64,000 bases of DNA from Patescibacteria group bacterium (GCA_004322365.1 SCTS01000005.1:67697-131696); one strand, 5' to 3'; counted from the first letter of the stretch, positions 15,174 through 60,380 are shown. The notes: a model not told the origin generated them from the letters alone. Program-made: numbers and translations.

Positions 15174-15252
15174 TAAAAAAGACGAGGTGAGATCAGTCAC
15201 GATTTTATGCCTTGCTCCGCTTGCAAGCCATATTAGTTGCACATACTCAAGA

Positions 15253-19877: not shown

Positions 19878-19919
19878 TGATTATAAAATCCCCTCTATAT
19901 AGAGGGGATTTTATAATCA
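19878..19919. terminator. 42-nt perfect palindrome TGATTATAAAATCCCCTCTAtaTAGAGGGGATTTTATAATCA immediately 3' of the tRNA (likely tRNA terminator)
   Basis: Exact 20-bp inverted repeat, seen directly. Confidence 0.6.
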
Positions 19920-19921
19920 AG

Positions 19922-20214: not shown

Positions 20215-20296
20215 ATGTACACAATCAACAGAGTTGATTGGTGATTATTATATACCCTGACTTGATGATTCAGCAAACTTAACACTAGGTGTTATA

Positions 20297-29073: not shown

Positions 29074-29955
29074 CTAAACGCTCCAGCGAGCAAATATCCC
29101 CGCGGGCAGTAACCGACTGGTGCGTGCCTCCTCAATAGTTAGTTCACCCATCTCAACATCTCCTCCGTGCTTTTCAATAATTGATTCCAAATTGTGTGCA
29201 AACGCGAGCGATGAATAACCGGCGGCATACCCACTCACTAGCATAAATAGTGGCTTGTCTGACAAAAGCGCCCGGCAGAGTTTCATAAGCATTAGAAAGT
29301 TCTCCTCAATTTTCCACAATTCATCTTTTGGTCCATGACCAAAAGCAGGAGGGTCCATAATAATCGCGTCGTAGGTATTCTTTCGTTTTACTTCCCTCTC
29401 AACAAATTTCATGACATCTTCCGTGACCCAGCGGATTGGTTTTTCATTCAAACCAGAAAGTTTTGCATTCGCCTTTGCCCATTCGATTGCTGTTTTTGAT
29501 GCATCGACATGCGTAACTTGCGCACCAGCTTTTGCGGCAGCGAGCGTTGCCCCGCCCGTGTATGCGAAGAGGTTCAGGATCTTTATAGGTTCTAGGTTCG
29601 AGGTTCTAGGTTCCAGCTTCTCGGAGATCCATTGCCAATTGGGAACCTGCTCTGGGAAAAGACCGGTGTGCTTGAAGGAAGTAGGGCGAATCAGAAAATT
29701 CAGCCCACCAAGTTCAATGTGCCACTCTTTGGGAAAATCTTTCCCTGTGTGCCAATCACCTCCTTTTGCTTTGCGCTCATACCACGCATCTGCGGATTTC
29801 CACTCGTCATCGGCAAGATGTTTCTCCCACAATGCCTGTGGGTCAGGGCGTGAAAGAACAATGTCCCCATATCTCTCAAGCTTTTCTTCTCGACCAGAGT
29901 CAAGAAGTTCGTAATCCTTAGAGGGCTTCGTCGTCAATATGCTGTGCAACATTCC
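29074..29955 (-). CDS. class I SAM-dependent rRNA methyltransferase (RlmI/RlmK-like)
   Basis: LNLFAYTGGATLAAAKAGAQVTHVDAS (motif I), IIMDPPAF (motif IV). Contains an in-frame repeat-like insertion LEPRTSNLEPIKILN. Confidence 0.7.
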   Translation of the reverse strand, partial: GMLHSILTTKPSKDYELLDSGREEKLERYGDIVLSRPDPQALWEKHLADDEWKSADAWYERKAKGGDWHTGKDFPKEWHIELGGLNFLIRPTSFKHTGLFPEQVPNWQWISEKLEPRTSNLEPIKILNLFAYTGGATLAAAKAGAQVTHVDASKTAIEWAKANAKLSGLNEKPIRWVTEDVMKFVEREVKRKNTYDAIIMDPPAFGHGPKDELWKIEENFLMLMKLCRALLSDKPLFMLVSGYAAGYSSLAFAHNLESIIEKHGGDVEMGELTIEEARTSRLLPAGIFARWSV

Positions 29956-30066
29956 CTCCATGCTACCGCATGAACGCACCAATGGGTAGACATCTGGAAA
30001 TAATTAAATAAAAAAACATATACATATGAGTAGGATGTTTTGCCTCCTCATACGCACATAACATTC

Positions 30067-30106
30067 TGTATAGTTTAATTTAACGGTCGTTAACTTAAAC
30101 TATACA
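30067..30106. repeat. hairpin/palindrome TGTATAGTttaattTAACGgtCGTTAacttaaACTATACA (copy 2 of 2) in the divergent promoter region between the methyltransferase and ABC transporter genes
   Basis: Shares the outer CTGTATAGT/ACTATACA arms and the central TAACGGTCGTTA with the copy at 12049-12097. Inner arm positions differ but remain complementary, with one mismatch. Confidence 0.8.
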
Positions 30107-33200: not shown

Positions 33201-33524
33201 GTGGCTAAGAAATTATATTTCGGTGGCTTGTCTTACGACACCACTGATGACAGTTTAAAAGCAGCGTGTGACCAATTTGGCGCCGTATCATCTGCAAAGG
33301 TGATCATGGACCGCGAAACAGGTCGCTCACGAGGTTTCGGTTTCGTCGAAATGTCTTCGGACGATGAGGCGATGGCAGTTATCTCAGGGCTTGATGGTAA
33401 AGATGTTGATGGACGCACTGTTCGCGTTTCTGAGGCTCGTCCTCAGGAAGAGGGTGGTGGCAACCGTGGCGGTGGAAACCGTGGCGGAGGTTTTGGTGGC
33501 GGAGACCGCCGAAACAGCTGGTAG
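33201..33524 (+). CDS. RRM-type RNA-binding protein with Gly/Arg-rich tail (GTG start)
   Basis: RNP-2 LYFGGL and RNP-1 RGFGFVEM, with a C-terminal GGGNRGGGNRGGGFGGG tail. The first codon is GTG. Confidence 0.8.
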   Translation: MAKKLYFGGLSYDTTDDSLKAACDQFGAVSSAKVIMDRETGRSRGFGFVEMSSDDEAMAVISGLDGKDVDGRTVRVSEARPQEEGGGNRGGGNRGGGFGGGDRRNSW

Positions 33525-33552
33525 GATTTTTGATCCTTTCCTAAAAATTAAA

Positions 33553-33584
33553 AACCCGAGCATTCCGAGCTCGGGTTTTTTCTT
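33553..33584. terminator. bidirectional rho-independent terminator between convergent genes
   Basis: aaaaaCCCGAGCattccGAGCTCGGGtttttt. Confidence 0.7.
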
Positions 33585-37153: not shown

Positions 37154-37978
37154 TCTTCAAATAGAGCAGTGGAAAAAGAATTTCTTCTTCGAGAAAAATA
37201 TAACGGCGTAAAAAATTCAGAGTATGAGGCTGATGTGATGCGAATAGAGAATGGTGAACCACTCGCATATGTGATTGGCTTTGTTCCATTTTTAGATTGC
37301 AAAATATTCTTGGACTCACACCCACTGATTCCCCGACCTGAAACAGAATTTTGGGTAGAGAAAGTTATTGAAAAGCTGAAAACTGAAAGCTGGCACCCCC
37401 CAAGGGGACTGCAATTTGTATCCAATCGCTTTGCTCTTGGACAAATCGGGAGCCTTAAAGCTATCCAAAAACCACTTCGGGTTTTGGATTTGTTTGCAGG
37501 TTCGGGATGTGTTGGTGTGGCATTGCTCAAGCATATCCCTGATGCTCAAGTTGATTTCGGAGAAATCGATACAAATCACTTTTCTACAATTACAAAAAAC
37601 ATACGCGAGAATGGCATCGAAGAAATACGAACCGCTGTGATACGCACCGATGTTTGGGATGGCATCACTAATTTATATGACATTGTGTGCGCAAATCCCC
37701 CCTACCTGTCAGAGAGTCGCCTTAACTTAATTGGACCCTCAGTGCTCGCCTATGAGCCTAAAAAAGCACTGTTTGCTGACGAGGATGGCTTTGCTCTCAT
37801 ACGAAGATTAATTCTCAAAGCGGGGGCGCACCTAAACCCTAAGGGACTTATGTATATCGAGCATGAACCTGAACATGCAGAAATGATTCAAAAATGCGCC
37901 AAAGAACATGGCTTCAGTGCGGAAAATAAACAAGATCAATATGGAGTGTTGCGGTATAGCGTTTTGAGTAGGTTTTAG
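37145..37978 (+). CDS. prmC: release factor glutamine N5-methyltransferase (HemK/PrmC)
   Basis: DLFAGSGCVGVAL (motif I) and NPPY (VCANPPYL). Confidence 0.8.
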   Translation: MDHSSNRAVEKEFLLREKYNGVKNSEYEADVMRIENGEPLAYVIGFVPFLDCKIFLDSHPLIPRPETEFWVEKVIEKLKTESWHPPRGLQFVSNRFALGQIGSLKAIQKPLRVLDLFAGSGCVGVALLKHIPDAQVDFGEIDTNHFSTITKNIRENGIEEIRTAVIRTDVWDGITNLYDIVCANPPYLSESRLNLIGPSVLAYEPKKALFADEDGFALIRRLILKAGAHLNPKGLMYIEHEPEHAEMIQKCAKEHGFSAENKQDQYGVLRYSVLSRF

Positions 37979-38088
37979 GTGCTAGGGACTAGGTGCTAGA
38001 TGACGCTTCATTAGGTCCGTAGAAATCAACGAGGTGCTAGCTTTTTGAACTGAAACCTAACACCCAGAAGCTAGTACCTAGCACCTCA
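37972..38088. repeat. intergenic palindromic repeat element, CTAGGTGCTAG family (copy A)
   Basis: ggtgctagggactaggtgctag ... gaggtgctagcttttt ... agctagtacctagcacctc; the arms are mutually complementary. Confidence 0.8.
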
Positions 38089-38107
38089 TTCATGGCATAA
38101 TAGTTTT

Positions 38108-38326
38108 ATGCCTCCAGTAACCACACTGCCTACAGATGTTGGAATGATATTTTGGTTTTTCTTTGCAATTGCTCTGGTAGTAACCGTGTACTTCGTTTTT
38201 GCGGAACTCTTCCACTGGCTCCGCTTTGGGTTCATGTATCCTTTAGTGTGGATTGCTATACCGGTATACCTGATAGGTATTGTCATACTCATCGGCGGCA
38301 TGCTCACAGGTATTGGAGCTCTATAA
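38108..38326 (+). CDS. small membrane protein
   Basis: 72 aa with two TM helices, immediately upstream of the bPH_2 protein. Confidence 0.3.
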   Translation: MPPVTTLPTDVGMIFWFFFAIALVVTVYFVFAELFHWLRFGFMYPLVWIAIPVYLIGIVILIGGMLTGIGAL

Positions 38327-38329
38327 CAT

Positions 38330-38896
38330 ATGTCATACAACCCCTTTGAACTCAAAGATTTTAGAGATGGCGAGCGTGTCGTCATGTTAGTCCGTCATCA
38401 TTGGTTTGTATTATTCCGTGAAGTTTTCTGGCTCGGTATTCTATTTATTGCTCCATTCTTTTTAATACCAATAGCATTTGGAATTTCTGCGCAAGGAGGA
38501 GGACTTCCATCCGTACCACCTGGCGTAGTAATCTTTTTTGCTTCCCTTTGGACACTTATCATTTGGCATCTCTTATTTGCACGCTGGACAGATTATTACT
38601 ATGACCTCTGGATAATCACCAACTGGCGCATTATTGATATAGACCAAATCGGATTTTTCAATCGCAATGTTGCGACACTTCTAACCCTTGATCATATTCA
38701 AGATATAGAAACGCACGTTGATGGTATTGTGGGCACCATACTCAATTTCGGAAGTATCAAAGTGCAAACAGCCGCGGCAAAAGCGGAATTTCTCATGAGC
38801 GAAATCCCAAACCCTGTCGGTATAGAGAAAATTATTCGAGAGGCGCAAGAAGAAAAAATTCGTGTATTCGGCGCAAAACCTGCGACACACGGATAA
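38330..38896 (+). CDS. membrane protein with bacterial PH-like (bPH_2/YdbT-like) domain
   Basis: Two N-terminal TM helices, then YYYDLWIITNWRIIDIDQIGFFNRNVATLLTLDHIQDIE typical of bPH_2. Confidence 0.5.
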   Translation: MSYNPFELKDFRDGERVVMLVRHHWFVLFREVFWLGILFIAPFFLIPIAFGISAQGGGLPSVPPGVVIFFASLWTLIIWHLLFARWTDYYYDLWIITNWRIIDIDQIGFFNRNVATLLTLDHIQDIETHVDGIVGTILNFGSIKVQTAAAKAEFLMSEIPNPVGIEKIIREAQEEKIRVFGAKPATHG

Positions 38897-38902
38897 ATTA
38901 AG

Positions 38903-40114
38903 ATGACTATCGACCCTTACAAAGGCGTTCGGGATTTTTATCCCGAAGACGAACGGATACAGAAACACATTTTTGGTGCCATGCGTCGTGCGTCAGAGTC
39001 TTTTGGCTATGAAGAGTACAATGCCTCTATTTTGGAGTCGACAGAACTCTATATGGCAAAAACAAGCGAAGAAATAGTAAATGAACAAACATATACATTC
39101 ACTGACCGTGGCGACCGTTCCGTTACTCTGCGCCCTGAAATGACACCAACAGTTGCGCGTATGGTAGCGAGTCGTAAACGAGAACTTGGCTTCCCTCTTC
39201 GTTGGTACTCAATTCAAAACTTCTTCCGCTACGAGCGACCACAGCGAGGACGCTTGCGTGAGTTTTGGCAGTTGAACGCTGATCTTTTTGGTGTCACCGG
39301 AGTAGAGGCCGATGTGGAAATAATCGCCCTTGCCTATCGCGTCATGATGGAACTCGGCGCATCCGACACTGACTTCGTAATAAAAATTGGGAGCAGATCA
39401 GCACTGAACGCCGAACTTGCTCGTCGTGATATCCCCGCAATAAACCACAAAAAAATCGCTGCGCTCATGGACAGGAAAGGAAAAATTCCTAACGAGGAAT
39501 ATGATGATGAAATGAGCGCTCTTGCCGGTGGTGCATTTGAGATTCATGAGAGTCCCGACATTGTAGAAACTCGGAGGCTTCTGGCGACACTCGGTATCAC
39601 TAACACTGAATTCAATCCTGAAATTGTGCGCGGCTTTCAGTACTACACGGGAATCGTTTTTGAAGTGTTCGATACAAATCCAGAAAACAAACGCTCTATG
39701 TTTGGCGGTGGCAGATATGACAACCTTGTAGGTCAATACGGCTCCGAAGAAGTACCTGCTGTTGGTTTTGCTATGGGGGATGTCATTGCAAGAGATTTCT
39801 TAGAAACGCACAACCTCATGCCCAACATCACTTCCGCAACACATCTCTATCTTGCGCCAGCAAGCGACAATGAAGTCGAGGGTGTTGCAAATATTGCAAA
39901 CACTCTCCGAAAGAACGGAGTAAATGTTGCCACTGGCATGAAGCACAACAAAATAGGCGACCACATAAAAACAGCACTGAAGCTTGCTATACCTTACTTT
40001 GCAGTCTACGGAGAAAAAGAAAAGGAATCTGACACGCTCACCATCAAAACCCTCGCTACTAGTTCCGAACAAACCCTCCCTCTTTCCGATGTTGCTTCGT
40101 ATTTAAAAAGCTAG
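38903..40114 (+). CDS. hisS: histidine--tRNA ligase
   Basis: Class II aaRS motifs: GVRDFYPED, FRYERPQRGRLREFWQ, GGGRYDNL. Confidence 0.9.
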   Translation: MTIDPYKGVRDFYPEDERIQKHIFGAMRRASESFGYEEYNASILESTELYMAKTSEEIVNEQTYTFTDRGDRSVTLRPEMTPTVARMVASRKRELGFPLRWYSIQNFFRYERPQRGRLREFWQLNADLFGVTGVEADVEIIALAYRVMMELGASDTDFVIKIGSRSALNAELARRDIPAINHKKIAALMDRKGKIPNEEYDDEMSALAGGAFEIHESPDIVETRRLLATLGITNTEFNPEIVRGFQYYTGIVFEVFDTNPENKRSMFGGGRYDNLVGQYGSEEVPAVGFAMGDVIARDFLETHNLMPNITSATHLYLAPASDNEVEGVANIANTLRKNGVNVATGMKHNKIGDHIKTALKLAIPYFAVYGEKEKESDTLTIKTLATSSEQTLPLSDVASYLKS

Positions 40115-40140
40115 AAGCTAGAACCTAGCACCTAGCACCC
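40108..40140. repeat. CTAGGTGCTAG-family repeat, half element (copy B)
   Basis: aaaagctagaagctagaacctagcacctagcacc overlapping the hisS stop. Confidence 0.7.
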
Positions 40141-40156
40141 GTAACCTTCTTTTCTT

Positions 40157-40729
40157 ATGCGCCGAATCACTCTCGACATTGAAACCACAAATGCCGCCAT
40201 AGGTGGCGCATTTGACCCATCAACCATGAACCTCACGGTGGCCTGTATTCACGATACAGAAACGGATTTGTTTACTTCATACGAGGTGGAAGAATTACCC
40301 AAACTCTGGCCCATTCTAGAGCGTGCAGATTTACTTATCGGCTACAACTCAGACCATTTTGATATTCCAATTCTCAATAGATACTATGCGGGCGACCTTA
40401 CTAAAATCAGAAGCTTAGATTTACTCGCAGAAATAAAAAATGTACTCGGAAGACGCATCAAACTTGATTCAGTCGCTTCGGGAACCTTGGGCAAAAAGAA
40501 AAGCGGTAACGGGCTCGATGCCATAAAATGGTGGAACGAGGGCAAGAAAGAAAAAGTAATTAAATACTGTATTGATGATGTACGCATCACAAAAGATATT
40601 TACGAATATGCACTCAAGAATGGGAAAGTAACCTACTCGGACTTCGGAAAGAAAAAGGATATCACTCTCGATACCAGCGGATGGGAATCAAAAAAGGCCT
40701 CTTCTATTACGCATACATTGCCGTTTTAG
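40157..40729 (+). CDS. DEDD-type 3'-5' exonuclease (RNase H-like fold)
   Basis: ITLDIETT (Exo I), GYNSDHFDIPIL (Exo II), YCIDDVRIT (Exo III-like). Confidence 0.6.
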   Translation: MRRITLDIETTNAAIGGAFDPSTMNLTVACIHDTETDLFTSYEVEELPKLWPILERADLLIGYNSDHFDIPILNRYYAGDLTKIRSLDLLAEIKNVLGRRIKLDSVASGTLGKKKSGNGLDAIKWWNEGKKEKVIKYCIDDVRITKDIYEYALKNGKVTYSDFGKKKDITLDTSGWESKKASSITHTLPF

Positions 40730-40784
40730 GTAGCTGTCAGCTTGTAATTAAAGCTTTAAAGCAACAGCTAAAAATTTTACGACT

Positions 40785-41762
40785 CTAGCGACTGGTGGTT
40801 GATTGAGAACCAGCAGGCAAATCTACATTCGAGACATGGGTTTCGGCAGTGAAGTAAAAGGATCCTATGGCAAGACCGAGGAGCAATAATCCTCCGCCAA
40901 TCACTCCCAAATATTGCACTTTCACATGCATAAATATAGCGAGGAAAAGCAAGAGCGCTATGAGTCCTATCAAACCACCGAGTATGGAGAGGAGCGTTTG
41001 ATTCGGTGATGCCGCGGCAGATACAAGACCTTCTACAATTGGATTATTTGCTATCACAGGTAGAGATGGACCGGTTTCAGAACCTAAAACATTTGAAGAT
41101 ACCTTATCGGAGGTGGCAAGCTCTGTTGCAGGCACAGTCTTTGCGGGAATTGTTTTTGTTGAAACAGGAGTCGAAGCTGATTTTGCCCCCGATGCAGGGG
41201 TGGCAAAAAACTGAACAACGAAGGTAACATCTTTTCCTTCATACACTCCTTGAGCTGTGCCGATGCCAATGCGTGTAAATTCAGACTTTACAATGTTTGC
41301 TCGATGCGTTGGCGACTTCATCCATGCCTCCTCAACATCTTTAGATTCGGTAAAGTTAACGGCCAAGTTCTCGCCTGCATATGAGTAGTTATACCCAACA
41401 AGATCAAGCCAATGCCATGGAGTTGTTCCATCTGGCGCTACATGAGCAAAATACCCCTTTTCAGCCATGTCAGCCGCTTTCTTTTGCGCTGCGACGGTAA
41501 GAAGTGGCTCTTCAATAAGCGTGCCGACGCCGTTTTTCGCACGATCATCATTGGTGAGTGCCGTAAGTACCCCCGGCAACACCGCCGCCAAGAATCCTGT
41601 CTTATTAAAGACAAGAGTCGTATGAACAAAATATCCTATTTGAAGAAACACTAAAAGAGCGCCGACGGCTATCGCTGTTTCTTTCCTGAAAAAATGAGGG
41701 TGATACTTATTTCCAGCTGTCGGGATAAAGTAGTTTCTGATGTGCCAGAAGAATTTTTTCAT
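40785..41762 (-). CDS. CAP/SCP (PR-1-like, YkwD-type) domain protein with N- and C-terminal TM segments
   Basis: GYFAHVAPDGTTPWHWL ... GENLA ... WMKSPTHRANIV ... TRIGIG are CAP-domain motifs. Confidence 0.65.
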   Translation of the reverse strand: MKKFFWHIRNYFIPTAGNKYHPHFFRKETAIAVGALLVFLQIGYFVHTTLVFNKTGFLAAVLPGVLTALTNDDRAKNGVGTLIEEPLLTVAAQKKAADMAEKGYFAHVAPDGTTPWHWLDLVGYNYSYAGENLAVNFTESKDVEEAWMKSPTHRANIVKSEFTRIGIGTAQGVYEGKDVTFVVQFFATPASGAKSASTPVSTKTIPAKTVPATELATSDKVSSNVLGSETGPSLPVIANNPIVEGLVSAAASPNQTLLSILGGLIGLIALLLFLAIFMHVKVQYLGVIGGGLLLLGLAIGSFYFTAETHVSNVDLPAGSQSTTSR

Positions 41763-41772
41763 TTTTTTTTAA

Positions 41773-43707
41773 TTATGGCAATGACTTGCCGAGTGACGCG
41801 CTAACATTTGCAATCACAGTAGCATCTGCGCCAAACGACTGGAGAAGCTCAAGTATTGCCGATACCTGAGTATCACTGAGTGTTTGTGTATGTACTGGTG
41901 TTTTCTGTACCACTCCCTTATTTAGGACCTCACGTGTCATTGGGCCGACAATGCCGACAGCAGGAAGCGCGTTCTTTTCCTGATACGCCTTCACACCTGC
42001 TTTTGTTGCGGTGCCGAAATAGGAAGTTACGAGTCCAGAATATACACCTTCACTCGTGAGCCTCTCTTGAAGAGCTTTCACATCATCACCTTTAGAACCC
42101 ACTCTAAGAGTACGGGTAAAATTATAGGTAGATGCACCTAAGACACTACCAATGTTTTCTGTGACTGGAACAGTTTCTACTGGTGTCGCTATGACCGCGA
42201 CCGGAGTGGCTACAATCGAGGAACTAGTATTTAGTATAGACACACTAACACCACCGATAATTCCGCCACCGCCACCACCGCCACCGCCACTTGGTGCAGG
42301 TGTGGGAGCAGGTACATGCACGCTAGCAAAGTAAGATGCTTTTGTTGCTTGAAATGAACAGAGACCGTTTGCCACTATACAGGTTGAGGAAACGAGCCCG
42401 TCTTGTGTCCAACCACTAGCGAGCGCGAGCGAGCGATACACCGTAAGCGTTGTCCCGTTAAGAGCTGTACCAACATACATGTTGATTGTTATGGCTTGTG
42501 AAAATTCGAGCCCTATCCCAGAGATCCCCCATTGCAGTGCGCCGTCAATCACAACACCTGTTGCTACATTCGAAAGTGTACCGCCATCAATGCGCGCTAA
42601 AGAAATATCTCCTGTAGATAGCGCCGTGACATCACTCCTCGTTATGGAAGTACCTACGGGAATTGCGATTGTCGATGTACCGACACCTGAAGCAACGGAG
42701 AGTGTTGTCGTGGCGGTTTGATCAATAGGTAAAAGAACTAAAGGGGAGGAAGATGCAACAAACGAAAGAAGTGGATTGGCGAACGCAACAGTAAACGCCG
42801 AGGAACTCGCTGAAGTGTTACCAGCTGAGTCAAGAGCGTTCACCGTAAATGTGTGATTCCCTCCCGTAAGCCCCCCAATAAGGGATACACAGTCGGCCAG
42901 AGATACGCCATCAAGTACACATCCAAGAGTAACGGTATTTGCGTCAGTTGCAGACACGCTCGGGGTTAGTGTTTGACCCGTGGTCGTAGCGTTTTCAGGT
43001 GTAGTGATTGAAATAAGTGGTACAGCGGTATCAATATTTGCTACAGCAACAGCATTTGCGCCAGTGTTTCCTAACGAATCAGTGAAGGTAAACGTAAACG
43101 AGCCGTTAGTCGTAAACAGATGTGCGTTGGTATTAATAGGTGAAAAAACTTCTGTTGTGGTTGTTGAAAGAAGAGCACACACAACTTTGTTTGTCGGAGT
43201 AGTGGAACTGTATGAAAGAAATTCCGCTGAACGACTTACACACTCAGTTGAGTTAGTGGCACTTGGAAGAAGAAAGAATACAAACTCGGGTGTCGATGCA
43301 ATGGTCTGCTTTGTTACCGTGACTGAAAGGGCTGCTAATACATTCCCTTGAGTTGCAACAGTTCCTAAAGAAACGGTAATGACGCCGTCAACAAGCGATG
43401 TTGTATCAAAGGACAGTGAATATGTTTTAGAATCGAGCGAAGTAAAGACTTTTTCACCAGTGAGTATGGTTCCCACAGAATCTACCAAAGTCACTGTAGA
43501 AGTTCCTGAGCGAAATGTGCCACTAATGCCATCCAAGCCAGAATTTCCACTTATCACTATTGTGGTTTGATTGAGAGAGGTAATGGTGTTTGATCCCCCA
43601 TCAACCACCAATGATGGTGTGGCAGCAAATGTTGGAGTTGCAACGAAACAGAGAATAAGCGCGGAGCCAAAAGCTCCATATACAACCATTCGACGGAAGC
43701 CGTGCAT
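41773..43707 (-). CDS. large secreted cell-surface protein with Ig-like repeats, poly-Gly linker and C-terminal peptidoglycan-binding domain
   Basis: Signal peptide; SGGGGGGGGIIGG linker; C-terminal RVGSKGDDVKALQERLTSEGVY...AGVKAYQEKNALP is a PG_binding_1 domain. Confidence 0.65.
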   Translation of the reverse strand: MHGFRRMVVYGAFGSALILCFVATPTFAATPSLVVDGGSNTITSLNQTTIVISGNSGLDGISGTFRSGTSTVTLVDSVGTILTGEKVFTSLDSKTYSLSFDTTSLVDGVITVSLGTVATQGNVLAALSVTVTKQTIASTPEFVFFLLPSATNSTECVSRSAEFLSYSSTTPTNKVVCALLSTTTTEVFSPINTNAHLFTTNGSFTFTFTDSLGNTGANAVAVANIDTAVPLISITTPENATTTGQTLTPSVSATDANTVTLGCVLDGVSLADCVSLIGGLTGGNHTFTVNALDSAGNTSASSSAFTVAFANPLLSFVASSSPLVLLPIDQTATTTLSVASGVGTSTIAIPVGTSITRSDVTALSTGDISLARIDGGTLSNVATGVVIDGALQWGISGIGLEFSQAITINMYVGTALNGTTLTVYRSLALASGWTQDGLVSSTCIVANGLCSFQATKASYFASVHVPAPTPAPSGGGGGGGGGIIGGVSVSILNTSSSIVATPVAVIATPVETVPVTENIGSVLGASTYNFTRTLRVGSKGDDVKALQERLTSEGVYSGLVTSYFGTATKAGVKAYQEKNALPAVGIVGPMTREVLNKGVVQKTPVHTQTLSDTQVSAILELLQSFGADATVIANVSASLGKSLP

Positions 43708-43779
43708 ATATGGAATAGTAGCAAACTGGAGACAAAAGTAGTAGATAGAAACCGCTATGGAGGGGTATACAATATAAGA

Positions 43780-44625
43780 ATGAGACGTGTCTTAATTTCA
43801 GCAAGTGCAGTGATACTCATTGCACTATTTTCAAGTCCTCTGTACGCCGTGGCTGAAACCGCTTCTGCGGGGATTCCTGCAGGGAACATCTGGCTTTCAA
43901 AAAATGCCGTAATCGAAAAAGAATCGGTGCGTATATTTTTACCTGTATACAACGCGAGTGCAACAAAAATTTCTGGTGACGCAATCTTTTCTGTCGATAC
44001 GATACAAGTCGGTACTGCACACTTTGAACTTGATGCTGGAAACTCCACAATAGTATCGAGCACGTGGACTACAACAAAAGGAGCTCACTCGATAACAGCA
44101 CGACTTGAAGGTACAGTTGATGCAAAAACAGGTACTGAAATTTCTGTATCAGCAAACACACAAACACTTGCCGTTGATATAGCAGAACGTCCACCAGCAC
44201 CTGCATTAGTTCAGGCACTTGGGATTGTTGCGAGTGTTGCACAAAATACAGTATCTGTAGCACTTCCTGTTGTTGCATCGGTTGCGAATACCGTATTTAA
44301 AGAAACAGAGCAACTAAGAGAAAGTGCGGTGGTCGCGCTTGAAAATTCACTAAACGGAACTACCGCTTCATCTGACGCAACTCCATCACAAGGATTAGTC
44401 TTAGGAGCTGAAACATTCCGTGCACCTGCAAATAATGATGGACTAATGGCCACAGCAATTACTGCACCTACCTCAGAGGGCGTTATGCGGATACTCCAAA
44501 CAATTTTATTATTCCTTGTGAGCTATCAATGGATCTTCTATCCCCTTCTATTACTCATTCTTCTCGGACTATTATTTTTGATTGGAAAAGGAATGTCCCG
44601 CAAGCAGACACCGAAAAGGGGCTAG
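43780..44625 (+). CDS. secreted hypothetical protein with C-terminal TM anchor
   Basis: Start trimmed to MRRVLISASAVILIALF (signal); C-terminal ILLFLVSYQWIFYPLLLLILLGLLFLIG. Confidence 0.4.
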   Translation: MRRVLISASAVILIALFSSPLYAVAETASAGIPAGNIWLSKNAVIEKESVRIFLPVYNASATKISGDAIFSVDTIQVGTAHFELDAGNSTIVSSTWTTTKGAHSITARLEGTVDAKTGTEISVSANTQTLAVDIAERPPAPALVQALGIVASVAQNTVSVALPVVASVANTVFKETEQLRESAVVALENSLNGTTASSDATPSQGLVLGAETFRAPANNDGLMATAITAPTSEGVMRILQTILLFLVSYQWIFYPLLLLILLGLLFLIGKGMSRKQTPKRG

Positions 44626-44629
44626 TTTT

Positions 44630-44696
44630 TAGGTGCTAGGTGCTAGCTTGAATTTCTGAAAGCTAAAACCTGAAAGCTGACAGCTGAAACCTTCCT
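44630..44696. repeat. CTAGGTGCTAG-family repeat (copy C) between convergent genes
   Basis: ggctagtttttaggtgctaggtgctagcttgaatttctgaaagctaaaacctgaaagctgacagctgaaacc. Confidence 0.75.
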
Positions 44697-44697
44697 T

Positions 44698-45522
44698 TTA
44701 AAGAGGTGTCAAAAACATCAATATCGTAACGGCAAGAAGTACCCGGTACACCGCAAATACATACAGCGGGTGGGTTCGAAGGAATTTTAAAAGTATATAG
44801 ATGGCAAGAAGACCGCTCACAAAAGCAACAACACTTCCAAGAATGAGTGGGACGCCAATAGTGCCAAGAGCACCTGTTCCGGCAAGCTCTAAAAACTTCT
44901 TAGATCCTGCACCAAGAATAATGGGAACCGAAAGAAGAAAACCGAAGCGTGCAGATGCTTCACGCGATAGTCCGAGGAACAGGCCACCTGAAATGGTCAT
45001 GCCCGAGCGACTCATGCCAGGGATTAAGGCAAGGGCCTGAAAAAGACCAATGAGTATTGCCTTCCAAAAACCTACCGCCTCCATACCTGTCTGTGTTCTG
45101 TAACGTTTTGAAATATACTCAGCCAAAAGAAAAACTGCTGAACCTGCAATGAGCGCGTACGCAACAAGGTGTGTATTTCGAAACACAGTGTCCATCGTGC
45201 TTTCCAACAGAATGCCTAAAATTACAGCTGGAACAGTACCTACAATAAGTGCAAGCAGCAGTCGCCCATCTTCCACTGCGACAGGTTTTCCCATCACCTT
45301 CTTAAGTGCTGTGTGTGCCAAAGTGAGTAAATCTTTAGAAAAATACACAACAACCGCAAGGATGGTTCCTAACTGTAAAACCGAGTCAACAGCAAGGCTA
45401 TTCGTCCCCGTGGCACCAAGGAGCTCACGAGCGATTATAAGATGCCCTGACGAAGAGATGGGAAGAAACTCAGTGATACCTTCAACGAGGCCTAAAATAC
45501 TAAAAATCACCCAGTCGTACAT
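44698..45522 (-). CDS. uppP: undecaprenyl-diphosphate phosphatase
   Basis: ILGLVEGITEFLPISSSGHL is the BacA/UppP signature. Confidence 0.85.
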   Translation of the reverse strand: MYDWVIFSILGLVEGITEFLPISSSGHLIIARELLGATGTNSLAVDSVLQLGTILAVVVYFSKDLLTLAHTALKKVMGKPVAVEDGRLLLALIVGTVPAVILGILLESTMDTVFRNTHLVAYALIAGSAVFLLAEYISKRYRTQTGMEAVGFWKAILIGLFQALALIPGMSRSGMTISGGLFLGLSREASARFGFLLSVPIILGAGSKKFLELAGTGALGTIGVPLILGSVVAFVSGLLAIYILLKFLRTHPLYVFAVYRVLLAVTILMFLTPL

Positions 45523-45576
45523 GATATTCTGTATGATATCCTATCATTTAATACTAACTAGAGAACCTCTTAATTT

Positions 45577-46266
45577 ATGGAACAAAAACAAAACCTTTCA
45601 ATCCCTGTCGCTATCGTACTTGCTGGAGCTTTAATTGGTGGCGCTCTCTTTTTTATCGGACGCACTGACACGCCAACCACAAATACAAACACACCGACCG
45701 TTGCACAAAAAGATATTCCCGCAGTCACTTCTGCAGACCACATTATTGGAAGCATTGACGCACCAATAGTCATTGTTGAATACACCGACCTCGAGTGTCC
45801 GTTTTGTAAACAGTTTGACGGCACAATGAAGCAAGTGGTCAAAGCATATGGCGGTAAGGTTGCGTGGGTTGTTCGTAACTTTCCCCTTCAACAGCTCCAC
45901 CCTAACGCACCAAAAATTGCTCTCGGGGCAGAGTGTGCGGCGGCGCTTGGTGGCAATGCAACATACTTCAAATTCATTGATTCTGTATTTACGCAAGCAC
46001 CAATAAATACATTTTTCGACATAACAAAACTTACCGTAACAGCAGAAGGAGTTGGAGTTGATGCGAAGAAATTTAATGCCTGCGTTATCGCTGGAACCTA
46101 TCAAGATAAGATAAGTAAAGAATTCAACGATGCAGTTGCTGCAGGAGGTCAAGGAACTCCCTTCTCAGTCGCCATTACAAAGGATGGAAAACAATACCCT
46201 ATTCCTGGCTCTCAGCCGTTGGAACAACTCAAAACAATCATTGATGGAATCTTAGCGGGAAAATAA
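45577..46266 (+). CDS. DsbA-like thiol:disulfide oxidoreductase (thioredoxin fold)
   Basis: N-terminal TM and an ECPFCKQF (CxxC) active site. Confidence 0.75.
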   Translation: MEQKQNLSIPVAIVLAGALIGGALFFIGRTDTPTTNTNTPTVAQKDIPAVTSADHIIGSIDAPIVIVEYTDLECPFCKQFDGTMKQVVKAYGGKVAWVVRNFPLQQLHPNAPKIALGAECAAALGGNATYFKFIDSVFTQAPINTFFDITKLTVTAEGVGVDAKKFNACVIAGTYQDKISKEFNDAVAAGGQGTPFSVAITKDGKQYPIPGSQPLEQLKTIIDGILAGK

Positions 46267-46272
46267 AGAAGA

Positions 46273-46350
46273 AGGTGCTAGGGACTAGGTTCTAGGTGTT
46301 AGCTTTAACTTCCGAAAGCTAGAACCTAGCACCTATAACCTAAAACCTGT
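46273..46350. repeat. CTAGGTGCTAG-family palindromic repeat (copy D) between convergent genes
   Basis: ggtgctagggactaggttctaggtgttagctttaacttccgaaagctagaacctagcacctataacctaaaacc; aggtgctaggttctagcttt is the reverse complement of aaagctagaacctagcacct. Confidence 0.85.
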
Positions 46351-46353
46351 CTT

Positions 46354-47178
46354 TCAGAGCCCAAGGCGGTAAATGTCGAAGGAGTTTTCACCTTCAAACA
46401 TGTCGGAAGGGTTTGGGAGATACATACGCTCCCGTAGTATTTCTGCGCTCGCATCGTTAATGAGGCGATGAAATACTTCAAAGTCTTCTGCACATTCTTT
46501 AAAGTCCAATACATACCGACGCATTTGAGATGAACCATCGACGTTCTTTCTTTTTTTACACTCATAGACAATGAAGCGTCGAACTGGCTTGCCAAAAAGA
46601 GCACCAACGGTGTAGTAATTAAACATTGCCTGCAACACAAACAAAGGTTTCGAAGCACCGCTTTTACTGAACGAATCAACAAATTTATGATCAACAATAT
46701 CAACCGCCCCTTTTTCAACTCGAGATTCCACCACCAAGTCAGAAATCGCTTTCACTGGGAGCGGTAGTCCTGGAACTTCTGCCATACCCATGACTTCAAT
46801 TCCTAAAACCTTATGTTTGGGAGGTCTCTCTAAGTAAAAAGATACTGCCTGCAGGTAGTCCTTCTCCATACTCTGTCGCTTCTCTTTCTGCGCTCGCTTG
46901 CTTTTAGCTTTCCCAAATTGCACTTCAAAGTCTGCAATGTTTCGTAGATACTCGAGCCCTAATGCAACAGACGCTTCTTTTGAAAGCCCACTATAAAAAT
47001 GCTGAAGCGCTACATGCCCAGAGCGTCCAATGATGCCGGCCGGTGTAGACGGTGTGTCTCTTACATTTTCAACATACCGCTTGTACCACGCCAAAGGATT
47101 TCGCAAAAACGAAATGAGAGACGAGTGGCTCCAGTGTTTAATTGGATATTTTGATTTCTTACTCGAAGCCTTTTTCAC
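46354..47178 (-). CDS. PD-(D/E)XK nuclease superfamily protein (RecB/Cas4-like exonuclease fold)
   Basis: N-terminal HWSHSSLISFLRNPLAWYKRYV (RecB-family N-motif) and a core ISDLVVE ... VDIVDHK matching D...(D/E)xK. Confidence 0.55.
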   Translation of the reverse strand: MKKASSKKSKYPIKHWSHSSLISFLRNPLAWYKRYVENVRDTPSTPAGIIGRSGHVALQHFYSGLSKEASVALGLEYLRNIADFEVQFGKAKSKRAQKEKRQSMEKDYLQAVSFYLERPPKHKVLGIEVMGMAEVPGLPLPVKAISDLVVESRVEKGAVDIVDHKFVDSFSKSGASKPLFVLQAMFNYYTVGALFGKPVRRFIVYECKKRKNVDGSSQMRRYVLDFKECAEDFEVFHRLINDASAEILRERMYLPNPSDMFEGENSFDIYRLGL

Positions 47179-47216
47179 TCACTCATTATACCTGGAGTGC
47201 TTTTATCGGCATTTTT

Positions 47217-47432
47217 CTACCTCCCCATCAGACGGTCTCCGACACCCGCCACTAACATGAAAACGGTTGCTCCAGTAGCTAGAATAGTTACGATAAAAAG
47301 TGGGATGGTACACCCAACAGCGAACAACACCTTATTACGATACTTACCACTTACACGTTCCGAAGCGATGGTAGAGATTCCAGAAACAAGAGGCTGGCGA
47401 CCATCCGATCCTCCTTCAATAAGGCGAGACAT
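47217..47432 (-). CDS. possible small membrane protein
   Basis: 71-aa ORF with one strong TM; it competes with the overlapping plus-strand ORF 47197-47439. Confidence 0.2.
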   Translation of the reverse strand: MSRLIEGGSDGRQPLVSGISTIASERVSGKYRNKVLFAVGCTIPLFIVTILATGATVFMLVAGVGDRLMGR

Positions 47433-47481
47433 ACTATAAAATCAGTAGTAGATTCTAGAAAATATACTTGCTAGAGAATTA

Positions 47482-48768
47482 TCAATAGCTCCTTAATTTC
47501 TTTGCTTTACCGTGGGTGCGGATTTTTTCGAGGGCTTTTGCTTCAATCTGACGAATGCGTTCACGAGTAACTCCGAACTCCTGTCCTACTTCTTCAAGGG
47601 TGTGGTAAATGCCGTCTTCAAGACCATGGCGCATGGCGAGAATCTTTCTTTCTTTTGGTGTGAGATCACCTAAGATTTCATGGAGCTGTTCAACAAGAAT
47701 ACGATGTGCTGTTTCTTGGTCAGGTGTTGGCAGAGAATGGTCTGCCACGAAGTCACCGCGAGCTGATGCATCGTCATCATCTGATGAGCTGATAGGTGCT
47801 TCCAGAGAAAGTGTTTCTTGGTTGATTTGCTCAATCTGGTAGACCTTTTCAACATCCACACCCATTTCTGCAGAAATTTCTTCAGGCATTGGATCACGAC
47901 CCAAGTCTTGCTCGAGTCGTCGAACTATCTGCTTGTACTTAGCAATCGTTTCCACCATGTGCACAGGAATACGGATAGTGCGTGATTGATCAGCAAGAGC
48001 ACGAGTAATAGCTTGCCTAATCCACCATGTGGCATAGGTTGAAAACTTGAAGCCTTTTTCGTAATCAAATTTATCGACTGCTTTAAAGAGGCCTAAGTTC
48101 CCTTCTTGAATAAGGTCGAGAAGCGACAAGTCAGATGAGCGAGATGCGTACTTCTTCGCAATGGAAACCACGAGGCGGAGGTTTGCACGAGCAAGCAAGT
48201 TTTTTGCTTCCTCATCACCTTCGGTAATTCTTTTTGCAAGAGCTCGCTCTTCAGGGCCAGTGAGAAGTGGGTACTGACCAATTTCACGGAGGTACATTTG
48301 TATGGAGTCGTGTGCCGAGCCTTCTCCACGGTAGCCTCCACGCATCACGACTTCGTCAGGAACTTCTTCGAGCATTCCGCCTGACTCCAAGACATCAATG
48401 CCTGACGTTGAAAGACGCTCGTAGAGCTCTTCAAGAAAGAAAACATTCTCTTCAATAGTAGGAAATTCTTTTAAGATTTCGTTGTAGGTCACATACCCTC
48501 GCTCCTTACCTTTTGCAACAAGGCGTACTGCTTTTGTTTCCAAAAGTACTAAGCTCTTTTTTGAGACTGCTTTTGCAGGCTTTGGTGCCTTCACTTTCGC
48601 AACCTTCTTTGGAGCAGGCTTTGCCTTACGAGCAGCTACCTTCTTAGAGGACTTTGGCTTTTGTTTTGACTTTGAAGTGGATTTAGAAGCCTTACGTAAA
48701 GGCGCCTTCTTACGGGCGACTGGTTTTACTGACTTCTTTGCCTTCTTTATTGTTTTTTTCTTTGCCAT
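47482..48768 (-). CDS. rpoD: RNA polymerase sigma-70 factor with Lys/Ala/Pro-rich histone-H1-like N-terminal extension
   Basis: Region 2 ([35 protein letters not shown]), region 3 and region 4 ([20 protein letters not shown]). Confidence 0.9.
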
Positions 48769-48792
48769 ATCAAATATTAGTAGACTTTATCC

Positions 48793-50559
48793 TTAGTGGA
48801 GCTTCAACGCAAGCGCGTTTAACTCCTTCATAAGTGCTTCCGTTTGAACTCCGTCATGTGCTGTTTCAGCCACTCGAAGCAGTGCCACCACTTCACGATA
48901 CCGTTCATGTCGTGACTCCTTCAATAGTGCCTCGTACACTTCCTTGACTGCCTCCCTGCGGATAGCTTCATCGGCGTGACTTTCGAGAAAAAAGTCGGCC
49001 TCGAATAATGCCGCGCTGGTATCGAGAGACCGCCCCAGCAATTCTTCTGTACGCTCTTCGCCAAGAGCTCCCTTAAGGGCACCGAGGGCTGTATCAGCTG
49101 AAACTACATCTTTCTTTTCTTTAAAAAGAAGGAAGAGTCCGTAGACAAGACGCTCGAGTACATCACTCCGTGACAAGAATGGTTCTCTTGATGCGTTAGT
49201 GGGGAGCAGTCTGGAGTTAGTGGAAACGCTCTGGTCCTTTGGTGCGACCTGTACACCATCTACCTTCTTCAGCTCTGCAATCACCGCATCCTCTCCAACC
49301 TGCAATACTTCTGCAACCCTCTTTATAAAATGTGCCTGATCTATTTTATGTGGAATCATTGCAACATACGGCAGTACCGTGCGTGATACTTCTAGGCGAA
49401 ATGTGCGTGGGTCATACTTAGCATCTGCGATGTGTGCAAGATAAAAATCCACCACATGGAGTGCACTTTTTACTGCACCCCTAAACACATCCTTGTTTTC
49501 AAGCAGAATGTCAGCTGGGTCTCTCTCGGGAGGAAGTTTTACAATCTTCACGTTCATACCTGCTTGAAGTGCAATGCTTGCAGCACGACCTGCAGCTGAA
49601 ATGCCAGCCCTATCACCGTCATACGCTATAAGGAGGTTCTGAGTGTAACGCTTAATAATCTCCACATGAGGAAGTGTGAAAGCGGTACCCGAAGTCGCAA
49701 CCGTGTTATGGTAACCCGCCTGATGCGCCATAAGGAGATCTAACTGCCCTTCTACAAGAAGCGCTGCCCCTAGCTCCCGAATACCCTCACGAGCCTTATC
49801 AAGTCCATAGAGCACGCGTGATTTATCGAACACTGGAGTCTCCGGAGAGTTCAAATATTTTGCCTGAGGATGCTTTTCATCATCTTCAAAAATACGGCCA
49901 GAAAACCCAATGACTCTCCCTGAAATATCTTTAATCGGGAACATAATCCGACCACGGAAACGATCATAAAGCCTTGAGTCAGCAGTTTTTTCTGCTACCT
50001 GCACACTGCCTTCTGCATTTTCTTGCTTCTTAACAAGTCCCGCTCGTTCTAAAAGAACATCATCAAATTTCTTTCCAAGCAAAAAATCACGAAGCGCGTG
50101 CCATGCATTTGGCGCATACCCCAAAGACCAGTGAGATATAGTTTCTTCAGTCAAACCACGAGTCTTAAGATACGAAAGTGCTTCGGGTTTTTCTTTTAAT
50201 GTTTCAGAGAAAAAACTGCTCGCTGAGGCGAGGGCGGAATACAACTGCTCACGCAAATCTCGCTCTCCTGGTTTTTCATCTTCTAGTGGGATACCCGCTT
50301 TCTCTGCCAACATCTTTAATGAACCACGAAAATCAACGCCTTCCATTTCCTGTAAGAATGTAAACATGTCTCCCCCCTTACCAGATGAGAAACAATGATA
50401 GAGCCCGCGGTCAGGAGAAACAAAAAATGATGGGGTTCTTTCTTTGGTGAACGGCGACAGTCCTTTGTAGTACTTCCCCGCTCGCGTAAGCTTCACATAC
50501 TGCTGTACCACCTCAACAATGGTCAGCCTATCTTTTATTTTGTTTACGGTGTCGCTCAT
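48793..50559 (-). CDS. dnaG: DNA primase
   Basis: Zinc ribbon (GLSPFTKERTPSFFV...YHCFSSGKGGD) and TOPRIM (LLVEGQLD, DGDRAG). Confidence 0.9.
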   Translation of the reverse strand: MSDTVNKIKDRLTIVEVVQQYVKLTRAGKYYKGLSPFTKERTPSFFVSPDRGLYHCFSSGKGGDMFTFLQEMEGVDFRGSLKMLAEKAGIPLEDEKPGERDLREQLYSALASASSFFSETLKEKPEALSYLKTRGLTEETISHWSLGYAPNAWHALRDFLLGKKFDDVLLERAGLVKKQENAEGSVQVAEKTADSRLYDRFRGRIMFPIKDISGRVIGFSGRIFEDDEKHPQAKYLNSPETPVFDKSRVLYGLDKAREGIRELGAALLVEGQLDLLMAHQAGYHNTVATSGTAFTLPHVEIIKRYTQNLLIAYDGDRAGISAAGRAASIALQAGMNVKIVKLPPERDPADILLENKDVFRGAVKSALHVVDFYLAHIADAKYDPRTFRLEVSRTVLPYVAMIPHKIDQAHFIKRVAEVLQVGEDAVIAELKKVDGVQVAPKDQSVSTNSRLLPTNASREPFLSRSDVLERLVYGLFLLFKEKKDVVSADTALGALKGALGEERTEELLGRSLDTSAALFEADFFLESHADEAIRREAVKEVYEALLKESRHERYREVVALLRVAETAHDGVQTEALMKELNALALKLH

Positions 50560-50563
50560 GATG

Positions 50564-50612
50564 AATAGCTTACAGCTTTCAGGTGCCAGGTTTCAGCTTT
50601 TTTAATACCAAC
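50564..50612. repeat. degenerate CTAGGTGCTAG-family repeat (copy E)
   Basis: atagcttacagctttcaggtgccaggtttcagctttttt. Confidence 0.5.
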
Positions 50613-50620
50613 AGTTTTCA

Positions 50621-51241
50621 TTATGTGACAAGTTTTACAATATCTTCGAAATCTTGGAAACAGTAATCGGCTTCGGGTGAAGTATTCCACATGAGCGCCG
50701 TTAAAAGCCCGAGACTTTTTGCAGGCTTCAGCTCTTTTTCAACACTATCCCCAACAAACAGTATATTCTCTGCAGGAAGATTCGAAAGCTCAATCATGAG
50801 CTTGAATCCATCAAGTGCTGGCTTGGGATTTTTTACTTCTTTAGGCCCTAAAATATAAGTGAACCACGCACTCTCTATTCCAAGGGCTGGAAAAAACTTT
50901 TCTGCCATCACATTGGAGAATATAGAAATAGGCACAATCTCTCGGAGACGATTCAACACATCAGGAATGTTCGGATTTGCAAGCTTTAAGAGAGCGCTCG
51001 GGTCTGCCGAAGCATATCTCTCCGACCAGTAGCCGTCTGGAAGCCCAAGTGAAGCGAAGATTGCCGAGTGACTCTTATGTACTTTGAATAGCGATTCATA
51101 CTCCTCAACTAATTCCGGGGTGACCGCTTTTCCAACAATCTCCGCGTATGAACCATAACGCAATTTTTCATGCGCCTGTTTATCGAGACGAATAATAGTC
51201 TCACTAAAATCAAACCAAATATGTTTGATAGATTGCTTCAT
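50621..51241 (-). CDS. HAD-superfamily hydrolase-like protein
   Basis: Motif I-like IWFDFSETI and motif IV-like LFVGDSVEKEL. Confidence 0.5.
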   Translation of the reverse strand: MKQSIKHIWFDFSETIIRLDKQAHEKLRYGSYAEIVGKAVTPELVEEYESLFKVHKSHSAIFASLGLPDGYWSERYASADPSALLKLANPNIPDVLNRLREIVPISIFSNVMAEKFFPALGIESAWFTYILGPKEVKNPKPALDGFKLMIELSNLPAENILFVGDSVEKELKPAKSLGLLTALMWNTSPEADYCFQDFEDIVKLVT

Positions 51242-51242
51242 G

Positions 51243-51322
51243 ACTAGGTGTTAGGTGCTAGCTTCTAGGTGCTAGCTTTCAGATTTGAAAAGCTAGAACC
51301 TAGTCCCTAAAACCTATAAGCT
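51243..51322. repeat. CTAGGTGCTAG-family palindromic repeat (copy F) between the HAD-like gene and rpoC
   Basis: gactaggtgttaggtgctagcttctaggtgctagctttcagatttgaaaagctagaacctagtccctaaaacctataagc. Confidence 0.85.
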
Positions 51323-60315: not shown

Positions 60316-60345
60316 AACAAAAGAAACACAAAACCTTCAAATAAA

Positions 60346-60380
60346 AAACGCCCCGATTAATCGGGGCGTTTTTGTGTTCG
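60346..60380. terminator. bidirectional rho-independent terminator
   Basis: aaaaACGCCCCGATtaaTCGGGGCGTttttt: a 10-bp perfect stem. Confidence 0.8.

Follow-up and report, generated by a model that had tools for sequence, protein, structure and literature searches.

Tandem heptanucleotide arrays at gene ends in a Patescibacteria genome and their turnover between relatives

We describe a family of tandem heptanucleotide arrays in a stretch of 64,000 nucleotides (GCA_004322365.1, SCTS01000005.1:67697-131696; hereafter the window, 64 kb) from a metagenome-assembled genome of the Patescibacteria (Paceibacterota/Parcubacteria; window proteins TAK59008-TAK59036, contig of 135 kb), a streamlined member of the candidate phyla radiation (CPR). 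The family is real, dispersed and built of heptamers. A typical element consists of four to five G/T-rich units, a short loop and complementary C/A-rich units, and stands in a spacer right after a stop codon. The best reading is that these arrays belong to the prokaryotic class of heptanucleotide long simple sequence repeats (SSR) and short tandemly repeated repetitive (STRR)-like sequences, and that they resemble repetitive extragenic palindromic (REP) sequences in position and dynamics. We are evenly divided on a more specific proposal, namely that they are lineage-specific dispersed elements whose paired arrays act as RNA hairpins marking the ends of cistrons.

Repeat unit and reality of the family

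Six intergenic sites had been proposed in an initial annotation made from the sequence alone, and we keep them as sites 1-6; a site 0 was also compared in relatives. All six carry the motifs described, and their pairwise alignments were significant when computed (sites 1 and 4, for example, share 60 nt with 82% complementarity). The unit is a heptamer and not the 11-mer originally noted: Tandem Repeats Finder reports period-7 arrays at each of the six sites and also at 29586-29621 and 37369-37392, and an autocorrelation scan returned nine arrays at lag 7, none at lags 8 and 10 and one to five at the other lags from 4 to 12, the higher of these counts falling on coding-type multiples of 3. The three-unit pattern AGSTNNYAGSTNNYAGST, with at most one mismatch, has 34 matches in the window where 0.37 are expected from dinucleotide-preserving shuffles (shuffle maximum 3), and CTAGNNNCTAG has 13 where 0.40 are expected.

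The heptamer consensus is AGSTKYY, AGGTGCT is the most frequent unit and CTAG is formed at the unit junctions. When 11 arms comprising 55 units are placed in register, A stands at position 1 in 53 of the units, G at position 2 in all 55 and T at position 4 in 51. Position 3 takes G or C and position 5 takes T or G, followed by pyrimidines at positions 6 and 7. Nine of the 11 arms carry an AGCTT-type unit (AGCTTTY or a version with one base changed) beside the loop, and AGGGACT, a rare unit, is found at three loci in one and the same context. Between 29.6 and 51.3 kb, seven loci hold the 11 arms; with one degenerate locus, eight loci fall within 22 kb, six of them intergenic and two inside coding regions. 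A profile of the arms (nhmmer) recovered only the 11 arms (E <= 3e-6, a value that follows by construction) and a weak extra match at 37372-37397, with nothing scoring in 1-29 kb or 51.4-64 kb of the window. Given this phase profile, the AGCTT-type unit next to the loop, the recurrence of AGGGACT and a profile search that recovers the arms only, the copies are homologous multi-unit elements rather than independent products of slippage. The possibility that a CTAG-rich composition found genome-wide might explain the pattern, which the initial annotation had itself raised, fails. CTAG is under-represented in the window (102 occurrences, compared with 128 expected under a Markov model and 242 from mononucleotide composition), yet 26 of the 102 lie inside arrays, which occupy 0.76% of the window; the family is therefore not a by-product of base composition. 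Rfam scans at gathering and permissive thresholds placed no family on the repeats, the best overlap being a chance-level microRNA match of 25.5 bits against a gathering threshold of 69.

The family is largely palindromic, four of the six noted sites (1, 3, 4 and 6) being inverted arrays. Site 1 (37970-38086; G/T arm 37970-38001, C/A arm 38052-38086, inner stem beginning at 38032) lies directly 3' of prmC and contains the prmC stop codon TAG at 37976-37978; it has a predicted fold of -43.8 kcal/mol (z -2.8) on the plus strand and -42.0 (z -3.65) on the minus strand. Site 3 (44617-44695; G/T arm 44617-44649, C/A arm 44659-44692) fills the spacer between the convergent open reading frame (ORF) 43702-44625, whose TAG stop is within the array, and uppP. 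Site 4 (46273-46348; G/T arm 46273-46306, C/A arm 46314-46348) separates convergent genes for a thioredoxin-like protein and a PD-(D/E)XK nuclease, and folds at -38.1 (z -5.8) and -35.8 (z -4.1) on the two strands. Site 6 (51246-51322; G/T arm 51246-51280, C/A arm 51289-51322) fills the 85-nt spacer from the rpoC stop to the HAD start, both genes being on the minus strand; its folds are -31.8 (z -3.05) and -29.0 (z -3.0), and 4 nt separate the end of its C/A-rich 3' arm from the HAD start codon. Three of the four hairpin loci thus beat shuffles on both strands (z -2.8 to -5.8). Pairing runs mainly through the constant CTAG junctions, and the variable triplets form internal loops.

The long imperfect hairpins that had been predicted throughout are accordingly found at sites 1, 4 and 6 and, weakly, at site 3, whereas sites 2 and 5 are single arms with no significant hairpin relative to shuffles (z about 0 at site 5). 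Site 2 (40107-40147, plus strand) is a C/A-type arm, AGAAGCT AGAACCT AGCACCT AGCACCC; it overlaps the stop codon of hisS, and an RNase_H-like gene starts 10 nt beyond its end, at 40157. Site 5 (50567-50600), between the HAD stop codon and the dnaG start codon, reads AGCTTAC AGCTTTC AGGTGCC AGGTTTC AGCTTTT on the plus strand and is of C/A type on the sense, minus strand. Both single arms therefore have the C/A-rich orientation on the mRNA, and they end 7-10 nt before the next start codon.

Confinement to the second half of the window holds only approximately, since one array lies at 29.6 kb. Two arrays had been overlooked, and the family spans 29.6-51.3 kb instead of 38-51 kb. The first is the five-unit array AGGTTCT AGGTTCG AGGTTCT AGGTTCC AGCTTCT at 29587-29621 on the plus strand (nhmmer E 8e-9), within the minus-strand gene 29074-29982 for an S-adenosylmethionine (SAM) methyltransferase; it codes for a loop, EKLEPRTSNLEPIK, just ahead of the SAM-binding motif and three residues longer than the aligned loop in PDB 2igt. 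The second, AAAGCTG AAAACTG AAAGCTG at 37370-37399 on the plus strand, is a degenerate array with a weak profile match (E 0.13) that opens a hypervariable insert of prmC. The intergenic arrays close all six reading frames; in the coding arrays exactly one frame of the coding strand is open. The placement first described, at gene 3' ends or between convergent or tandem genes and overlapping stop codons, was borne out, with the array itself supplying the TAG stop of three genes (prmC, hisS and ORF 43702-44625), and the genes named there (prmC, hisS, uppP, thioredoxin/DsbA-like, dnaG and rpoC) are correctly identified.

Turnover of arrays between relatives

We compared orthologous DNA from six relatives (L121, L127, L149, L150, L151 and L206) that are 86-97% identical. 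L206, at 97.3% identity over 17.6 kb, has sites 0, 1, 3, 5 and 6 nearly unchanged, differs from the window at site 2 by exactly one 7-nt unit and has the whole element at site 4 replaced by an AGCTGTC/AGCTTTC hairpin. In L121 and L127, which are about 86-97% identical to the window, arrays of AGGGTTT, AGTGGTT, AGCGTTT or AGTAGTT occupy sites 1, 2 and 4 (L121) and sites 3, 4 and 6 (L127); L121 has a short AGCTTTC-type remnant at site 3 and is identical to the window at sites 5 and 6. L149 carries at site 4 the left arm of the window, AGGTGCT AGGGACT AGGTTCT AGGTGTT AGCTTTAA, beside the opposite flanking gene and therefore flipped, and it has an additional array between rpoB and rpoC. L150 has, at the position of site 4, a textbook bidirectional terminator together with one heptamer arm, and in the rpoC-HAD spacer a long palindrome that is not made of heptamers. 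Throughout these cassette replacements the flanks remain 90-97% identical. Several of the replaced versions still fold well, namely those at site 1 of L121 (-48.4 kcal/mol, z -4.5), at site 4 of L121 (-37.7, z -3.8), at site 4 of L127 (-36.6, z -2.6) and in the rpoC-HAD spacer of L149 (-43.6, z -5.6). [quoted passage not shown]

Turnover extends to coding sequence. Hypervariable segments built of heptamers are present in dnaG (49960-50020) and prmC (37370-37480) of the window and at 15145-15185 and 1167-1204 in L121. L121 prmC has AGGTGCT AGGTGCT AGGTTCC AGCTTCT in frame at the point of the array, and its protein is 19 residues shorter; the dnaG product has 588 residues in the window as against 598 (L149) and 595 (L150), and its alignment with L121 shows a nine-residue insert in L121. 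These segments change protein length between relatives that are about 93% identical. Near-identical members of the prmC and dnaG clusters (98-100% identity) were uninformative, and relatives at 69% protein identity or below have few or no arrays.

The arrays change by one unit at a time in either direction, a pattern consistent with replication slippage. Entire arms or hairpins are also copied, flipped and exchanged, between strains as well as between sites; loci in one genome consequently have unit types and their order in common, whereas close relatives differ at one and the same locus. Template switching between the arms of a quasi-palindrome is an established mutational mechanism, and together with recombination or gene conversion it may lie behind this copying, flipping and swapping.

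Two further inserts were seen in these spacers. A double-hairpin element, GATCCCTTCGGATCCGACG(G)AAGCGTCGCC, with two 5-bp stems closed by tetraloops, lies in or beside heptamer arrays of three relatives (L127 11655-11685; L149 7915-7945 and 12710-12745; L150 16565-16600) and is absent from the window. In L121, a perfect 21-bp palindrome (AGTGATTTGATATATCATATCA...) at 9055-9105 sits beside the site 3 remnant as an unrelated insert in the same spacer.

Arm polarity across phyla

An exact 17-mer of the commonest unit was searched against a collection of species-representative genomes and gave at least 120 matches; the counts for other phyla given below hold among the matches listed, which do not include the source genome. 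Arrays were present in Vibrionaceae, Pseudoalteromonas, Shewanella, Gemmatimonadaceae, Planctomycetota, Acidobacteriota, Bacteroidota, Chloroflexota, Treponema, Bacillota, other CPR and more. Short tandem repeats in these matches comprised 224 period-7 arrays as against 8 of period 6 and 12 of period 8, and about 106 of the 224 have unrelated units. All 24 inverted pairs have the G/T-rich arm 5' and the C/A-rich arm 3'. This polarity is kept on either strand, and it is shared by every hairpin of the window and its relatives. The resolved hairpins abut ORF ends in 9 convergent, 12 tandem and 2 divergent contexts, so that 21 of 23 have an ORF 3' end facing them on at least one side; in some the arms enclose an inner G+C-rich stem, and arms may be of unequal length (4 and 10 units in L117, for example). 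Of the ORF ends faced by single arrays, 90 are 3' ends and 30 are 5' ends, and these arrays show no strand bias with respect to the neighbouring genes (48 and 42).

The sequence of the unit itself is not special. In viral contigs, AGGTGCT was found at 13 loci, compared with 14 and 27 for two composition-matched shuffled heptamers; because of this control, we regard heptamer arrays as a general phenomenon, and the idea that AGGTGCT is special or horizontally spread is not supported. We also considered two simple origins for the polarity. One, a G/U-rich array in each of two convergent 3' untranslated regions, was rejected since single arrays lack a strand bias; the other, seeding by stop codons, was rejected by reasoning, as CTAG junctions yield TAG on both strands either way.

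Two sets of arrays from these searches deserve mention in their own right. The IMG/VR contig IMGVR_UViG_3300049215_000802 (L155, L158 and L161), filed as viral, 83 kb long and about 54-66% G+C in three stretches, has many hairpins in which outer AGGTGCT units and inner CGGGTAT units are followed by their complements in mirrored order, the G/T arm being 5'. Long, near-perfect (AGGTGCT)n arrays of single orientation, with 10-18 units, lie at about 199.8 kb on chromosome I of Aliivibrio fischeri ES114 (L032, 7794-7898) and at similar loci in Shewanella, Pseudoalteromonas and Ferrimonas; these cultured marine Gammaproteobacteria would be experimentally tractable.

Known repeats and candidate roles

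Heptanucleotides are reported to be the commonest class of long SSR in prokaryotes, and polymerase slippage has been proposed as their origin (Mrazek et al. 2007, cited in PMC4679880 and PMC4692102). According to a study of 2015, heptanucleotide repeats had no detailed literature (PMC4692102). As in long SSRs and STRRs, the arrays described here consist of 7-nt units placed head to tail beyond chance, their loci in the 64 kb analysed are dispersed and mostly intergenic, and strains differ by a step of one unit (site 2). The AG.T-phased unit and the Patescibacteria host are new within this known class. A full-text search for the repeat sequence gave only unrelated papers, and we found nothing specific on heptamer repeats in CPR, Gemmatimonas or Pseudoalteromonas.

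The Xanthomonas GGGAATC and Nostoc GGGGAYT repeats likewise have tandem 7-nt units at dozens of intergenic loci, 0-50 bp from ORF ends (PMC4692102). Xanthomonas has about 190 GGGAATC arrays, with convergent inverted pairs, able to form stem-loops, near ORF ends at 70-75 loci (Rehm et al. 2015, PMC4692102), and these loci occupy the spacers between the same genes in sister species, with extensive variation in length and sequence. In contrast, their unit is G-quadruplex-forming, whereas ours is AG.T-phased with CTAG junctions, and the elements of the window are mostly inverted pairs with positionally differentiated units, cassette swaps and arrays in coding regions. In Beggiatoaceae, cyanobacteria and Bacteroidetes, TAACTGA arrays stand immediately upstream of start codons that have no ribosome-binding site (MacGregor 2015, PMC4679880), overlap stop codons and are scattered over phyla. 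STRRs (Mazel et al. 1990, cited in PMC4692102) and TAACTGA arrays share with our family a dispersed and mostly intergenic location, a position directly upstream of start codons without a Shine-Dalgarno sequence (as at sites 2, 5 and 6), the scattering of one heptamer over distant phyla and the overlap with stop codons, which arises because the arrays close all frames. TAACTGA arrays differ in being nearly all direct repeats (one inverted set of 170), in their unit and in that no hairpin architecture has been described for them.

Likeness to REP sequences and their bacterial interspersed mosaic elements (BIMEs), which the initial annotation had proposed, stands for position and dynamics. These elements and the REPIN hairpins too are short palindromes after stop codons in convergent and tandem spacers, with polymorphic occupancy and proposed roles in mRNA stabilisation, and BIMEs of different element types are described in the same spacers, as are the different elements of our relatives. 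They lack internal heptamer periodicity, and they come with a tag and a cognate REP-associated tyrosine transposase (RAYT), neither of which was found in the window; the account in PMC3733652 places the tag, GTAG or CGTC, at one end of a palindrome of 20-40 bp. A further parallel is offered by the Rickettsia palindromic elements, which are palindromes of a reduced genome that also lie in frame in coding genes at positions tolerated by the fold. Those are elements of 100-150 bp with unique sequence and not tandem heptamers.

We propose that, once transcribed, paired arrays would form long imperfect hairpins at the ends of cistrons. One role of such hairpins could be to block 3'-to-5' decay and another to serve as processing sites; any termination they cause would at most be weak and independent of a U-tract. 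The arrays would, in addition, place stops in all six frames, and ahead of the next start codon a single C/A-rich arm would serve as an unstructured leader that has no Shine-Dalgarno sequence. None of 38 window genes has a Shine-Dalgarno sequence; for this reason we dropped the idea that AGGUG is a Shine-Dalgarno mimic. A TATAAT-like box stands a few bases before the start codon of several, such as rpoB and genes 46354-47178 and 13177-14817, and the two observations suggest leaderless or Shine-Dalgarno-independent initiation.

Several observations weigh against hairpins that mark cistron ends. The arrays are dispensable, as L149 and L150 lack site 5 and have a HAD-dnaG spacer of 3-10 nt, and the arrays inside prmC, dnaG and the methyltransferase gene cannot be transcript-end signals. 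Hairpins are absent at sites 2 and 5 and in the rpoC-HAD spacer of L127 (no significant fold, z -0.4), and the fold of site 3 is weak (-26.1, z -1.4 on the plus strand; z -0.07 on the minus strand). The strict polarity of the arms is explained neither by this proposal nor by any model testable here, and the persistence of hairpins could stem from template switching rather than from selection. Finally, each functional step in the proposal is one that we infer.

A serious rival is that the arrays are neutral or selfish by-products without function, generated by polymerase slippage and template switching at the few non-coding or loop-coding positions where they are tolerated, with hairpins arising from quasi-palindrome correction. 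We regard this as possible, although our judgement leans clearly away from it. Close relatives gain, lose and replace arrays, arrays also occur in coding loops where they alter only protein length, AGGTGCT is no commoner than shuffled heptamers in viral contigs, and the dominance of period 7 with many unrelated units in AGGTGCT-bearing genomes speaks for a mutational process of a generic kind. However, in a genome whose spacers are very short, these spacers keep a structured element through complete replacement of its sequence, and pure drift predicts neither the 24:0 polarity, nor the positional differentiation of the unit next to the loop, nor the threefold excess of 3' ends over 5' ends faced.

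It is doubtful, in our view, that hairpins of heptamer arrays form one conserved class across phyla, with the G/T-rich arm 5' on both strands, often an inner stem between the arms and a place next to stop codons, and with a polarity that reflects a dedicated reader or writer. The reader might be a single-strand-binding protein that loads on the arm emerging first and gates formation of the hairpin; the writer might be a templated process that lays down units beside gene ends, since plain slippage would not explain polarity. A related and unlikely suggestion is that the arrays are sites for a trans-acting protein, one heptamer per subunit, and that binding to the G/U-rich arm, which is made first, controls the hairpin. 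Candidates would be the RNA recognition motif (RRM) protein encoded at 33201-33524, cold-shock-type proteins and S1, which bind RNA or single-stranded DNA, or a DNA-binding ribbon-helix-helix protein such as the inc18 omega repressor. Omega binds arrays of direct and inverted 7-bp heptads. The fixed phase of AG and T in 51-55 of 55 units amid variation at the other positions, and a G/T arm that is 5' on either strand, would suit a factor acting on the first-emerging arm; the RRM_1 protein (E 3.5e-19) is encoded 4 kb upstream as a candidate, and CspB is reported to bind heptamer repeats, one protein per heptamer (reviewed in PMC4679880). Yet the unrelated units AGGTGCT, AGGGTTT and AGCTTTC substitute for one another at one locus and coexist in one genome, and the single arrays have no strand bias.

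That the hairpins are classical intrinsic (Rho-independent) terminators is very unlikely, even though they lie immediately after the stop codons of convergent and tandem genes, with a bidirectional placement between convergent ones, and a canonical terminator occupies the place of site 4 in L150. No array site has a G+C-rich stem with a T-run, a consensus scan finding only two marginal 5-6 bp matches inside arrays, whereas classical terminators flanked by an A-run and a T-run are clear elsewhere in the window (12123-12155, 33550-33580 and 60339-60373). Those have a 5' A-run and C-rich arm and a 3' G-rich arm and T-run, so that the purine/pyrimidine polarity of their arms is the reverse of that of the heptamer hairpins, and site 6 lies inside an apparent operon with its 3' arm ending just before the next start. 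We give hardly any credence to the idea that a RAYT or other transposase, encoded at another place in the genome, mobilises the arrays in trans as REP/REPIN or MITE-type elements, an idea for which the dispersed, palindromic copies at gene ends, the different elements in the same spacers of relatives, the flipped copy in L149 and the fixed relative orientation of the halves, also a property of REPINs, would speak, given that there is no single terminal GTAG/CGTC tag (only the periodic AG.T is constant, with CTAG, TTAG or CAG junctions), that replaced sites show no target-site duplications, that no RAYT/Y1 HUH or other transposase was detected among about 55 ORFs of the window (Pfam, NCBIfam), that copy number shifts in exact 7-nt steps and that very unequal arms, as in L117, fit slippage and not transposition.

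Whichever origin applies, the window provides a CPR example with a clear comparative series of one-unit slippage, cassette swapping, flipping and loss at fixed spacers, and its locus exposes a strict arm polarity that is common to distant phyla. Should the hairpins indeed define the ends of transcripts or protect mRNA, they would rank among the main means of punctuating genes in genomes that, as seen here, have no Shine-Dalgarno sequences and few classical terminators; if they have no role in transcripts, they mark a strong polymerase-linked mutational bias that reshapes loops of prmC, dnaG and the methyltransferase. Arrays of this kind will break assemblies, and they are usable as strain markers for CPR populations.

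Some other features of the window were recorded. The gene at 33201-33524 (plus strand) encodes a 107-residue RRM_1 protein with a glycine/arginine-rich tail and is followed by the strong terminator at 33550-33580; to our knowledge, RRM proteins are uncommon in bacteria. A KhpA/B protein is encoded at 60395-60811. A search of the window with the motif G[FYW]GF[IL] revealed no cold-shock domain protein. At 19900-20260 on the minus strand, a group I intron (Rfam RF00028, 68 bits, E 4e-17) interrupts a tRNA gene, whose exon halves are TCCGCGGTAGCTCAATGGTAGAGCAGCTCCCT and AAGGAGTTGGTTGTAGGTTCGAGTCCTACCCGCGGAGC and which is followed by a hairpin terminator; ARAGORN gave no tRNA in the window. Lastly, a perfect 23-bp palindrome, CCCCTGTATAGTATAATCTAACG/CGTTAGATTATACTATACAGGGG, lies at 12049-12096 and has a second copy, 88% identical, at 30066-30106; both are in promoter-like spacers, the second between divergent genes, and look like a putative operator.

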